The notes under the pieces are model-generated. The model saw only the letters and a program-made list of their open reading frames with translations, was not told where the DNA came from and did no database searches. The position numbers and the translations under genes are program-made. Of a stretch of 64,000 bases of DNA, positions 56,078-58,541 are shown piece by piece. The stretch is from NCBI GenBank assembly GCA_041666915.1, contig JBAYFZ010000001.1, positions 9,086 to 73,085 of the forward strand, given 5' to 3'. The stretch's first letter is position 1. Each line of letters starts with the position of its first letter. Origin of the DNA: Minisyncoccota bacterium. Its GTDB lineage: Bacteria > Patescibacteriota > Minisyncoccia > Phycocordibacterales > PALSA-1337.

Positions 56078-56156
56078 GGGCTAACTTTTGTCTTATCTTT
56101 ATAAAAATATGAATTCAAAGTGCAAAGTGCAAAGTGCAAAGTTTAAGACAATAATT

Positions 56157-56585
56157 ATGTTGTTTGTTTTTTCTGTAATTTTGTTTACACCTTTTGTTCA
56201 AGCACAAACTATTAAACCAGAACCTGTAGATGTGAACAGTTCTTCTTTTAGATTACTCATTTGTGATGGCCCAGTTCTTCCAGCTGGTGTAACTCCTCCA
56301 AAAGCAAACTATGTTCCTTGTGACTTCAAAGGGTTGATGATGCAGATTCAACATTTTATAAATATTGCTATGGTTGGAGGTGTTATCATTGCTATCTTAG
56401 GTATGACTTATGCTGGTATTCTGTATATCTCTGGTAACCCTGCTAAGATAAAAGAAGCTCACGATATATTTCCAAGTATTCTGATAGGATTTATAGTAAT
56501 GTTATCAGCATGGTTTATCGTCTATCAGGTTATAAATTGGTTGACTGGTGGTAATACTTTGAGTGTTCTTCTTGGTAATCCATAA
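56157..56585 (+). CDS. VirB2/TrbC-like (T4SS-pilin-type) small membrane protein, paralog 1 of 6
   Basis: Signal peptide 'MLFVFSVILFTPFVQAQT', then TM1 'AMVGGVIIAILGMTYAGILYI', loop 'SGNPAKIKEAHD', TM2 'ILIGFIVMLSAWFIVYQV'. ORF is open from TTG 56088. Confidence 0.55.
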   Translation: MLFVFSVILFTPFVQAQTIKPEPVDVNSSSFRLLICDGPVLPAGVTPPKANYVPCDFKGLMMQIQHFINIAMVGGVIIAILGMTYAGILYISGNPAKIKEAHDIFPSILIGFIVMLSAWFIVYQVINWLTGGNTLSVLLGNP

Positions 56586-56589
56586 AATT

Positions 56590-57066
56590 ATGAAAAATAT
56601 ATCTAAAAAAATTGTTTCAGTATTATTAGTGGTGGTTTTTGTTATTTCTGTATCGGCTCCTGTTTTTGCTCAGTCTAGTACAGGTAGTAATGTTCCTAGT
56701 ACTGGAGGGTCAACGAACTCTAATGCTTCTAGTCAAACTTTCACTCTCCAAAATCCTTTGAATCCGAAAATAAACTCCATTGGTGGTTTGATACAGACTT
56801 TTGTGGAGATCATTAGTTATATTGCAATATTGTTTGCAGTCGTAGCTTTTATTTGGGTTGGTTTTCAATATGTTACGAGTGCGGCGCAAGGTAAAACTTC
56901 AAAGATAGAAGAATTACATGGTCAATTGTTATGGCTCGTTGTAGGTGTCGCTGTTATCATTAGCGCTAGAGTTATCATTCAATTGACTATAAATACATTG
57001 TCAGCAACTGGAACCATCAGTCCTGGAGTTATAAACAGTGCCCAAAATGCATTAAGAGGTAATTAA
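56590..57066 (+). CDS. VirB2/TrbC-like small membrane protein, paralog 2
   Basis: 'MKNISKKIVSVLLVVVFVISVSAPVFAQ' signal; TM1 'ISYIAILFAVVAFIWVGFQYV'; loop 'TSAAQGKTSKIEE'; TM2 'LLWLVVGVAVIISARVII'. Confidence 0.55.
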   Translation: MKNISKKIVSVLLVVVFVISVSAPVFAQSSTGSNVPSTGGSTNSNASSQTFTLQNPLNPKINSIGGLIQTFVEIISYIAILFAVVAFIWVGFQYVTSAAQGKTSKIEELHGQLLWLVVGVAVIISARVIIQLTINTLSATGTISPGVINSAQNALRGN

Positions 57067-57081
57067 AATATAATAATAAAC

Positions 57082-57441
57082 ATGAAAAAGATTCAATATT
57101 TTGTTACAGGTTTGGCGATATCATTACCTTTTATAGCTTCTGCTCAGACACAGATGAAATTGAGTGACCTCATGGCTAAACTTGCTGGATATTTGAATCA
57201 AGCTTTAGCATTACTCATGGGATTTGCTGTTGTTGTATTCGTCTTTTATGTAATAAAATATTTTATCCAACCCGGTGATACAAAGAGGGTAGAAGCAGCT
57301 CAATATCTAATGTGGAGTCTTATAGGTTTCTTTGTCATCCTATCTCTTTGGGGCTTAGTTAACATCCTCATTTCAACTTTTGATCTTGGTACCAGTAGTC
57401 CTGGTTCTTGGGCTAGTCTTAGAAATTTATTTCCTAATTAA
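57082..57441 (+). CDS. VirB2/TrbC-like small membrane protein, paralog 3
   Basis: Signal 'FIASAQT'; 'LAGYLNQALALLMGFAVVVFVFYVIKYFIQPGDTKRVEAAQYLMWSLIGFFVILSLWGLVNILISTF'. Confidence 0.6.
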   Translation: MKKIQYFVTGLAISLPFIASAQTQMKLSDLMAKLAGYLNQALALLMGFAVVVFVFYVIKYFIQPGDTKRVEAAQYLMWSLIGFFVILSLWGLVNILISTFDLGTSSPGSWASLRNLFPN

Positions 57442-57449
57442 TATAAAAT

Positions 57450-57755
57450 ATGAATAATATAACAGATATAAATAGTCTTACTACAAAGTTGGCTGGTATT
57501 GGTAATGTGATAGTCTATCTACTCATAGCTTTGGCAGTAGTTTATATTGTCTGGAATGTTGTTCAGTACGTGGTCAAACCATCAGCTGATAGCAAGACCG
57601 AAGCCCTCAAAAATATGGGGTGGGGTATACTGGGCTTATTTATCATCGTCTCTCTTTGGGGTTTGGTCAATATCCTTACAAATACTTTTTCTACGAATAA
57701 TAATGCCCCTACGGATCGTTTTCCAAATGCGAATTTCTTATCAGGTTCAAAATAG
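57450..57755 (+). CDS. VirB2/TrbC-like small membrane protein, paralog 4
   Basis: 'LAGIGNVIVYLLIALAVVYIVWNVVQYVVKPSADSKTEALKNMGWGILGLFIIVSLWGLVNILTNTF'. Confidence 0.6.
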   Translation: MNNITDINSLTTKLAGIGNVIVYLLIALAVVYIVWNVVQYVVKPSADSKTEALKNMGWGILGLFIIVSLWGLVNILTNTFSTNNNAPTDRFPNANFLSGSK

Positions 57756-57776
57756 TTAGTAATCCACAAGGTTAAT

Positions 57777-57804
57777 TTGCTTGTTTGTGTTTACGGGGTA
57801 TAAT
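57777..57804 (+). promoter_or_regulatory. sigma70-type promoter upstream of paralog 5 (TTGCTT, 16 nt, TATAAT)
   Basis: Seen in sequence, 37 nt before the ATG at 57841. Confidence 0.45.
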
Positions 57805-57840
57805 TGGGATGATATTAAGATTTATTAATTTATTATAAAC

Positions 57841-58233
57841 ATGAAAAAAATTATCGCACTTATCGCTTTCGTTGCTCCATCAGTAGCTTCGGCACAATCT
57901 TTGGCACCTATTACCAATGTAAATGATTTGTCTTCTAGACTTTTAGGTATTGGTAACACGGTGACATATTTGTTAGTAGCATTGGCAGTTATTTATATCA
58001 TTTGGAATGTAGTCAATTTTCTCATCAAGCCAGCCGGTGAAGAAAGAAAGGGTGCTCAGATGAATATCGTATGGGGAATTGTAGGTTTGTTCGTTATAGT
58101 TTCTATTTGGGGTCTTGTCGGTATTCTTACAAACACATTCAAGACTGCACCTACAAATCAGGCAATACCAAATTTTGGAACTAATGCTAGTAATGGTGGT
58201 ATACCTTCCAATACAGTTCCGTTGGTTCAATAA
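57841..58233 (+). CDS. VirB2/TrbC-like small membrane protein, paralog 5
   Basis: Signal 'APSVASAQS'; 'LLGIGNTVTYLLVALAVIYIIWNVVNFLIKPAGEERKGAQMNIVWGIVGLFVIVSIWGLVGILTNTF'. Confidence 0.6.
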   Translation: MKKIIALIAFVAPSVASAQSLAPITNVNDLSSRLLGIGNTVTYLLVALAVIYIIWNVVNFLIKPAGEERKGAQMNIVWGIVGLFVIVSIWGLVGILTNTFKTAPTNQAIPNFGTNASNGGIPSNTVPLVQ

Positions 58234-58247
58234 TATCCGGTTAGAAT

Positions 58248-58541
58248 ATGCAATCATTTCTGAAAATACCCTTTGTTGAGGCAGCGGTTGATATGACTGC
58301 TTTTGGAAATGTCATAAACCCAATAATAGTCAATATTGTCTACCCGATAATTGGGCTTTTGTTTGGAATTGCGATAGTCATGTTTGTCTATGGTGTTTTA
58401 CAATTGGTATTGCATGGAGCAGACCCTTCTGCTCGTGAAAAAGGGCAATCAACCATAATGTATGGCACGATAGGAATGTTCATCATGGTTTCAGCTTGGG
58501 GGATCATATATCTAGTGTCAAATACGATTAAGGGACTTTAG
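58248..58541 (+). CDS. VirB2/TrbC-like small membrane protein, paralog 6 (no obvious cleavable signal)
   Basis: 'FGNVINPIIVNIVYPIIGLLFGIAIVMFVYGVLQLVLHGADPSAREKGQSTIMYGTIGMFIMVSAWGIIYLVSNTI'. Confidence 0.55.
   Translation: MQSFLKIPFVEAAVDMTAFGNVINPIIVNIVYPIIGLLFGIAIVMFVYGVLQLVLHGADPSAREKGQSTIMYGTIGMFIMVSAWGIIYLVSNTIKGL

Follow-up and report, generated by a model that had tools for sequence, protein, structure and literature searches.

A conserved operon-like unit of six paralogous T4SS_pilin-family hairpin proteins and a sugar-type solute-binding protein, set apart from T4SS genes in a clade of Paceibacteria

Our analysis of a 64-kb stretch of the Minisyncoccota contig JBAYFZ010000001.1 (hereafter the window) centers on an operon-like unit on the + strand, in which a methyltransferase gene and a gene for a sugar-type solute-binding protein (SBP) are followed by six tandem genes at 56088-58541 encoding paralogous hairpin proteins of the PF18895 family (p1 to p6, encoded by ORF1 to ORF6). 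The six-gene array very likely belongs to the VirB2-like pilin arrays of Patescibacteria, and an array as such is of a kind published in 2023-2025. What is new is, above all, the sugar-type SBP as a conserved and repeatedly fused neighbor, and besides this the strict conservation of subunit types and the clade-wide separation of the array from genes of a type IV secretion system (T4SS). On balance we think it probable that the six proteins serve in a heteromeric surface filament or conduit of the T4SS type, which has a glycan-binding partner and is assembled by a VirB4 machine that we infer to be encoded elsewhere. That they form a filament outside the cell in particular is a putative and more tentative proposition.

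An earlier note on this DNA had described six tandem, same-strand paralogs of 97-167 amino acids (aa) with two transmembrane (TM) segments each, and the description is borne out. The maximal open reading frames (ORFs) are 165, 167, 119, 101, 130 and 97 aa long, and the pairwise alignment that the note had proposed brings all six products together at local identities of 18.5-58.6%, with TM1, loop and TM2 in register. By hydropathy, charge and alignment, each product consists of two long uncharged helices around a loop of 7-13 residues that carries two or three Lys/Arg. The signal peptide that had been called usual is present as a Sec-type leader in four of the six (VQA/Q in ORF1, FAQ/S in ORF2 and ASA/Q in both ORF3 and ORF5, the slash marking the predicted site), and ORF4 and ORF6 are without one because the preceding stop codons lie only 8 and 14 nt upstream. 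Similarly, a TM2 block put forward as conserved, 'VSLWGLVNILTNTF', is exact in ORF4 alone, nearly so in ORF3 and ORF5, and found in degenerate versions in ORF1, ORF2 and ORF6. Around the common hairpin, each paralog has features of its own. In p1, an extracellular N-terminal domain with two invariant cysteines (CDGP...YVPCDF) precedes TM1, the loop KIKEAHD and TM2, and the position-specific motif of this protein is present in 69 orthologues. p2 has a low-complexity linker rich in S/T/N/G and an FTLxNPL motif ahead of its hairpin, p3 has a hairpin and a conserved C-terminal PxSWxx(L/F)xNxFP tail (consensus of 80 orthologues), and p6 begins with the short conserved N-terminus AAVDxxAFG...PII (consensus of 76 orthologues), followed by the hairpin. 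The p4 hairpin bears the SLWGLVNILTNTF block and has the signature SIWGLVxILTNTF in common with p5, the hairpin of which is followed by a C-terminal tail rich in Pro, Asn and Gly. An AlphaFold2 model of p5, made with 43 orthologues, places helices at residues 2-19, 27-62 and 67-99 with a predicted local distance difference test score of about 90 in the hairpin, corresponding to a signal helix, a helical hairpin of 36 and 33 residues and a disordered tail. The comparison with VirB2 by AlphaFold that had been proposed was uninformative, since the helical hairpin of the p5 model is of a generic kind, with thousands of unrelated hairpins and not one pilin among its matches. Among p2 orthologues, extensions are variable and reach about 250 extra residues, in one case with an fn3 domain; long N-terminal extracellular extensions are found in the related loci L028 (7810-9048, 412 aa), L017 (8290-9102, 270 aa) and L043 (8195-9052, 285 aa).

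Membership of the T4SS-pilin family, to which the two-TM topology had earlier been likened, is upheld by profile searches. All six products pass the gathering score of PF18895 T4SS_pilin (26.6 bits; scores in Table 1), an assignment also found in public precomputed annotations, and ORF2 alone passes the cut-off of PF04956 TrbC/VirB2 (27.9 bits), the other five being without a reported match. Orthologues of p2 score 21.7-26.9 bits against TrbC, and for one of them, from Taylorbacteria, a TrbC match is on record. A tblastn search with ORF2 against 72,556 plasmids returned a single match, a 'pilin-like conjugal transfer protein' encoded on a megaplasmid of the Bacillota genus Pontibacillus (NZ_CP062975.1, WP_207531472.1), with 38% identity (E 4e-6). 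Its gene is followed, 4 kb downstream, by those for a VirB4-like ATPase (CD1110 family) and a cell-wall endopeptidase. The Pontibacillus cluster (L090, 14815-24368) comprises tandem pilin-like genes for proteins of 151 and 145 aa, a 779-aa VirB6-like protein, VirB4 and a DD-metalloendopeptidase. Both of the tandem pilin-like proteins match p2-class proteins by phmmer (1.9e-12 for window ORF2), and their arrangement indicates that small tandem sets also occur in ordinary monoderm conjugation-type clusters. p2 is the paralog closest to the pilin-like proteins found inside monoderm T4SS clusters.

We consider it most improbable that the six match a hydrophobic profile of low complexity through their composition and are in truth holins, the remains of a prophage, spurious ORFs or other small membrane proteins unrelated to the family. 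None of the six has a match in PHROGs, hundreds of conserved orthologues exist at 50-77% identity, p2 specifically matches a T4SS-cluster protein across phyla, and the surrounding DNA is housekeeping chromosome, not prophage: the window holds rpoB, rpoC, dnaG, rpoD, a UvrD/PD-(D/E)XK helicase-nuclease gene, hisS, bipA, ftsZ, ftsA, lepB, pth and gyrA, together with a type IV pilus pilB/pilC locus, and the array lies next to gyrA. What could be said for a chance resemblance is that the Pfam scores are modest (27.6-42.6 bits), that many weak sub-threshold matches to other membrane families were obtained and that the fold is generic. A holin or phage origin was rejected on the PHROGs result, the housekeeping context and the conservation.

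Evidence on how the paralogs relate to one another comes from related genomes. Five syntenic loci were obtained by exact-protein look-ups and 80 by a scan of GTDB species representatives with an ORF5 alignment, the relatives being named Taylorbacteria, Paceibacterota, Parcubacteria or Patescibacteria; their ORFs were typed by six position-specific hidden Markov models (HMMs), and gene order was counted in the 66 arrays situated clear of contig ends. The order p1-p2-p3-(p4/p5)-p6 is kept in 65 of these 66. Between species, proteins at the same array position are 54-62% identical, in contrast to 24-38% for different positions, save for p4 versus p5 at 53%. As typed, 30 arrays have the five-gene form and 23 the six-gene form, the difference being the p4 duplicate; in the window p4 and p5 are 58.6% identical, and p4 is a recent duplicate of p5 that is missing from the five-gene form. 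This positional orthology, together with the fixed order, indicates distinct, retained subunits and not variable cassettes, and since the paralogs differ in leader, Cys domain and tails they are not interchangeable. Rates of change are intermediate: relative to the window, the pilins have median identities of 44-56% and the SBP one of 55%, compared with 81% for GyrA and 27% for an SPFH-like neighbor, which for pilins and SBP is the behavior of surface proteins under purifying selection. As a separate observation, the p4 and p5 genes of one relative (L006, GCA_964532285.1) have a 165-nt stretch that is 93% identical between them (9654-9818 and 10145-10309), their proteins having an identical 44-aa segment in common, which points to recent gene conversion between the two youngest paralogs; no such p4/p5 conversion was seen in the window. 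In some relatives a further, single T4SS_pilin gene is found between gyrA and the gene for the methyltransferase, on the other strand (- strand; L077 1939-2325, L078 6001-6444, L083 6125-6691, L089 5377-5925), at a spot where the window has an unrelated 148-aa TM protein (53665-54111).

These data also bear on antigenic diversification, which the earlier note had offered alongside functional diversification as a meaning of six diversified copies in a row. Antigenic or host-range variation has been proposed for Patescibacteria arrays by analogy with Bartonella and Anaplasma (PMC12102498), and in such a cassette the paralogs would be interchangeable versions of one pilin that had diverged so as to escape recognition or suit different hosts. 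The low identity within the array (18.5-58.6%) does resemble that of published arrays (mean 25%), p4 and p5 are recent duplicates with gene conversion in one relative, and the p2 extracellular extensions differ in length between species. However, across about 80 species every array position is occupied by a conserved orthologue that has signature motifs of its own, the paralogs are built differently with regard to leader, Cys domain and tails, and the window is without silent copies or recombination-driving repeats; the six position-specific HMMs found no further array-type genes among its other ORFs. We therefore rejected the antigenic-variation cassette on positional orthology, and it seems to us very unlikely here. 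Functional diversification, on the other hand, fits paralogs that are conserved separately.

The solute-binding protein that had been noticed next to the array is real (SBP_bac_8) and is the conserved partner of the six genes. It is of the family-1 type (SBP_bac_1/SBP_bac_8) with an N-terminal TM anchor and no lipobox, and its nearest solved relatives are the sugar-binding proteins MBP1 (4r9f, 4e-8), MalE2 and GacH. In 72 of 83 loci p1 is directly preceded by an SBP of about 430 aa, and most of the other loci end at a contig edge; the SBP gene runs 4 nt into the p1 gene in one locus. No permease or ATPase of an ATP-binding cassette (ABC) transporter (BPD_transp, ABC_tran) was found beside the SBP gene, in the Pfam-scanned window ORFs or in the syntenic loci. 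In two species representatives (L045 and L062) SBP and p1 form a single ORF of 597 and 696 aa, in which a full-length SBP is followed by a linker in place of the p1 leader and then by the Cys domain and hairpin. Database searches add the fusions P0122, P0159, P0161 and P0246. Of these, P0122 comes from an independent JGI sample and is 88% identical to the first fusion, P0159 and P0161 make up one lineage with the second fusion (64-68% identical internally), and P0246 is a third, more divergent fusion at 38% identity. The closest unfused SBP to the first fusion lineage is 84% identical to it. Fusion therefore arose more than once and was retained, and in all SBP is fused to p1 in at least three lineages. 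The topology is consistent with such a joining, as the SBP is outside, where the mature p1 protein is predicted to have its N-terminus too. Further upstream, a methyltransferase gene (PCMT/UbiE-like matches) ends 9 nt before the SBP gene and precedes it in 70 of 83 loci with a median identity of 75%, a housekeeping-level conservation; it is probably co-transcribed with the SBP gene.

A number of results weigh against placing the array in a T4SS. On the side of the family, the best NCBIfam model for all six products is NF045849 (the Mbov_0395-family equivalog), which they match at 15.3-32.2 bits against a cut-off of 40 bits, so that they are relatives, not members, of that equivalog. A comparison of the six paralogs by hhalign with eight VirB2 genes that lie between virB1 and virB3 on MPF_T plasmids gave a weak alignment (probability 10.6%, P 0.0029) of 81 colinear columns that include the AxA/Q site and both TM segments with the loop between them; when ORF5 orthologues were used as the profile, MPF_T VirB2 was not matched, and solved pilins were found neither by sequence, with a profile of the six against PDB sequences, nor by fold. 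On the side of the genes, the scan of the source contig (450,810 bp) for T4SS components covered the window and the 10 kb to its right. No VirB4/VirD4-type ATPase was found by Pfam among all ORFs of at least 180 aa in the window, nor did phmmer with a monoderm VirB4 find a match there; as every window ORF large enough for VirB4 or VirD4 is accounted for, the earlier statement that no secretion ATPase is in view holds true. Inspection downstream, as the note had advised, turned up no VirB4 or other T4SS gene in the 10 kb past the window, where genes for NusB/Nudix, RNase III, SMC, MreB, MreC, PBP, GreA and AspRS-like proteins lie. Nor do about 80 related loci have a T4SS component at 10 kb or less from the array, and the ORFs of at least 300 aa with a Walker A motif in these loci encode SMC, IF-2 and ClpB, with a PilT-like ATPase in three loci. 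The Pontibacillus VirB4, VirB6-like protein and other cluster genes had no match in the window or in any related locus. Finally, among the rows listed in PMC12102498, 14 Taylorbacteria assemblies are VirB4-positive and nine are VirB4-negative, and neither monoderm nor Patescibacteria T4SSs have been shown to make a pilus (PMC12857230).

The published record nonetheless offers a setting in which an array may be remote from its ATPase. In a PF04956 and PF18895 survey of 3,035 Patescibacteria genomes, Quinonero-Coronel et al. 2025 reported 383 assemblies that together carry 441 arrays, each of 2-11 pilin genes and with identities of 25% on average and 54% at most (PMC12102498). In the same work, pilin genes lie near virB4 in 1,135 of 1,948 assemblies, VirB4 is present in 2,417 of the 3,035 assemblies with T4SS genes often dispersed, and Paceibacteria virB4 is usually near dnaA/dnaN (PMC12102498). 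The negatives among the Taylorbacteria are draft metagenome-assembled genomes (MAGs) and hence not conclusive. One genome with the operon, Taylorbacteria RIFCSPHIGHO2_12_FULL_45_16 (GCA_001821055.1, our L060), stands as VirB4-positive among the Table S1 rows listed (PMC12102498), yet has no VirB4 within 10 kb of the array, which means that its ATPase is encoded elsewhere in that genome. In Southlakia epibionticum, a series of pilin genes lies inside an essential T4SS cluster (PMC10633639), and a 2025 review counts six VirB2-like pilins in this species and raises a possible pilus in a monoderm (PMC12857230).

A different explanation of the separation is that the six hairpins (12 TM helices) and the SBP make up a T4SS-independent envelope complex that, as an anchor, receptor or channel, would capture and perhaps import sugars from the host; we rate this as unlikely, and equally so its corollary that the family derives from T4SS pilins by evolution only. 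We know of no precedent for a transporter built of two-TM hairpins and an SBP, which counts against such a complex. The same family lies inside T4SS clusters of Bacillota and inside those of Saccharimonadia, where it is essential; about 80% of Patescibacteria assemblies have VirB4, with T4SS genes often dispersed; and, from the listed rows, at least one operon-bearing genome is VirB4-positive. An independent complex would nevertheless account for an operon that is never beside T4SS genes in about 80 species and for an SBP that neighbors the array in 72 of 83 loci, is repeatedly fused to it and stands as an orphan, an ABC permease or ATPase being absent from its vicinity. That the subunit set and its order are fixed suggests a defined stoichiometric complex, and a sizeable share of the Taylorbacteria assemblies listed is without VirB4. 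In a related and similarly doubtful version, SBP and the six hairpins would be one machine, a pilin-like heteromer, perhaps VirB4-free, in which p1 is tethered to the sugar-type SBP; this tether would be non-covalent in the present locus and is covalent in the at least three lineages with fusions.

Returning to the T4SS-type filament or conduit that we favor, its assembly can be envisaged as follows. The six hairpins would insert in the cytoplasmic membrane such that their two termini face outwards and the basic loop faces inwards, and signal peptidase I would remove the leaders where present. A VirB4-type T4SS encoded elsewhere on the chromosome would then extract the hairpin proteins from the membrane, and the extracted subunits would polymerise into a heteromeric surface filament or conduit. 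Its body may be built of the hairpin-only types, namely p5, which is our candidate bulk subunit, with p4, p3 and p6, and p1 and p2 may be accessory or tip subunits that present extracellular N-terminal modules. For p2, the comparison of orthologues suggests a role as a carrier for variable surface modules. p1 would dock the glycan-type SBP, allowing recognition of a ligand or host, or capture of host sugars, in an epibiotic lifestyle.

If, in the unlikely reading given above, SBP and hairpins are one machine, this would be a ligand-binding pilus or membrane conduit by which an ultrasmall epibiont recognizes or takes up host glycans, and if the machine were VirB4-free it would represent an undescribed use of both a VirB2-type protein and an SBP. 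The locus provides three handles on the question: subunit types that are fixed and not interchangeable, inheritance as a unit apart from the secretion ATPase across a large Paceibacteria clade, and the genetic, at times physical, joining to a carbohydrate-type binding protein. The coupling to the SBP leads to a testable hypothesis of function, the recognition or capture of glycans at the host interface, and the SBP offers a soluble domain for expression and ligand screening. Were the coupling only syntenic, the locus would be one more case of a published phenomenon.

The layout of the locus (Table 1) is compact, with intergenic gaps of 4 to 15 nt across the array except for an 85-nt spacer before p5. 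Public gene calls, taken from the identical contig in ENA (ERZ27249449 k141_1421082), and the sequence favor the ATG starts given for ORF1 and ORF2, with which the 23-nt overlap of the maximal ORFs is gone. The p5 product is the same protein as NCBI MFA6553945.1 / WCS89_00345, which comes from a MAG named 'Candidatus Paceibacterota bacterium'. In the spacer before p5, a TATAAT and, 30 nt upstream of it, an AT(C/T)CACA are both invariant in five species, and their combination is found a single time in the window, where chance would give 0.1. A consensus promoter scan, itself at background level, did not call the element, and the -35 is weak. On the strength of its conservation we regard it as a candidate internal promoter for p5 and p6, which would fit excess production of p5. 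The terminator-like hairpin and T run that begin 20 nt past the p6 stop likely mark the end of the operon.

Table 1. Features of the operon-like unit, with positions in the window
Feature	Position	Strand	Basis
SAM-dependent methyltransferase, 172 aa	54236..54754	+	Pfam families in public gene calls
Solute-binding protein (SBP), 437 aa	54764..56077	+	SBP_bac_8, 4.5e-10
p1, 158 aa (maximal ORF from 56088)	56109..56585	+	T4SS_pilin 27.6 bits
p2, 158 aa (maximal ORF from 56563)	56590..57066	+	T4SS_pilin 35.3, TrbC 31.5 bits
p3, 119 aa	57082..57441	+	T4SS_pilin 30.7 bits
p4, 101 aa	57450..57755	+	T4SS_pilin 35.7 bits
p4-p5 spacer element (candidate promoter): TCCACA, 30 nt, perfect TATAAT	57763..57804	+	Conservation
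p5, 130 aa	57841..58233	+	T4SS_pilin 35.5 bits
p6, 97 aa	58248..58541	+	T4SS_pilin 42.6 bits, highest of the six
Terminator-like hairpin and T run, 20 nt past p6 stop	58561..58590	+	Consensus scan, pattern match only

Several neighboring features were recorded in their own right. Directly after the array, a convergent three-gene cluster (58596-61399, - strand) encodes a single-TM protein of 145 aa, an SPFH/Band_7 protein of 318 aa and a protein of 395 aa in which an S/P/A-rich N-terminus is combined with a coiled coil and a TM segment; it is syntenic in 15-30 related loci, is about 27% identical and changes much faster than the pilins. Between this cluster and the L32/NusB genes lie tRNA-Leu(tag) and tRNA-Lys(ctt) (61652-61939, - strand), besides which Rfam and ARAGORN gave no matches in the window. 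The type IV pilus locus at 29751-34100 comprises pilB (T2SSE, 29751-31073) and pilC (T2SSF, 31057-32148), a 472-aa LVIVD-repeat protein downstream (32163-33581) and small ORFs with prepilin-like N-termini at 33578-33733 and 33714-34100 (G/MTLIEV..., KKG/FVALIAVV...); at 22 kb from the array, it is a separate conventional pilus system in the same genome. Accessory-looking genes in the window encode a Fic-domain protein followed by a methyltransferase (9532-10986), a Schlafen AlbA_2 / bacterial PH domain protein (26482-27459), a 910-aa protein with an InlB B-repeat (23722-26454) and a matrixin-like M10 peptidase (35611-36636). Two genes of the HisRS family are present at 41401-42663 (-) and 22305-23621 (-), a full hisS and a 420-aa paralog that looks HisZ-like, with weaker tRNA-synt_His and anticodon-domain matches.

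Among known systems, the closest likeness is to the pilin arrays of Patescibacteria themselves, namely SEML1_0006-0019 of S. epibionticum ML1, the 'Sec-secreted array' of Nanosynbacter lyticus TM7x and the 441 published arrays. These are from the same phylum and of the same families (PF18895/PF04956), and in common with the present locus they have small tandem genes on one strand, low identity within the array and Sec-type leaders. The definition used for published arrays, at least two PF18895/PF04956 genes in tandem or one gene apart, in Patescibacteria and with low identity, describes the present array as well, and even the number six recurs in the pilins of S. epibionticum (PMC12857230) and the 'effector' genes of TM7x. 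The pilins of S. epibionticum, however, lie inside the T4SS cluster and are shown to be essential, whereas the array described here stands apart on the chromosome, beside gyrA, with the nearest 10 kb free of T4SS genes in about 80 species, and its coupling and fusion to an SBP is a feature of its own; in the published accounts of Patescibacteria pilin arrays we found no mention of a binding protein.

Proteins of the NF045849 (Mbov_0395/MMCAP2_0565) family resemble p2 in having a signal peptide, a Cys-containing extracellular stretch and a two-helix hairpin, at 35-38% identity, and in Pontibacillus two such genes stand in tandem. The Pontibacillus genes belong to a conjugation-type cluster with VirB4 (CD1110), a VirB6-like protein and a hydrolase, in contrast to the window array, which is without these. 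The VirB2/TrbC pilins of diderm MPF_T systems (the Agrobacterium T-pilin and RP4 TrbC) are alike in the AxA/Q leader (present in four of the six here), the two helices and the short loop. They differ in that only p2 passes the TrbC threshold, in that the present genes are not flanked by virB1 and virB3 and their host is a monoderm, and in that several of the paralogs have N-terminal modules or C-terminal tails. The VirB2 arrays of Bartonella and Anaplasma are similar in the tandem amplification and divergence of pilin genes, but those are variable versions of one subunit, unlike the ancient position-specific orthologues with differing architectures found here. A further parallel, by analogy and not homology, may be drawn with the major and minor pilins of type IV pili and type II secretion, where one operon likewise encodes several conserved paralogous subunits, some with extra domains. 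Those sets, which belong to an unrelated protein family and use another assembly ATPase, build one filament with a tip complex.

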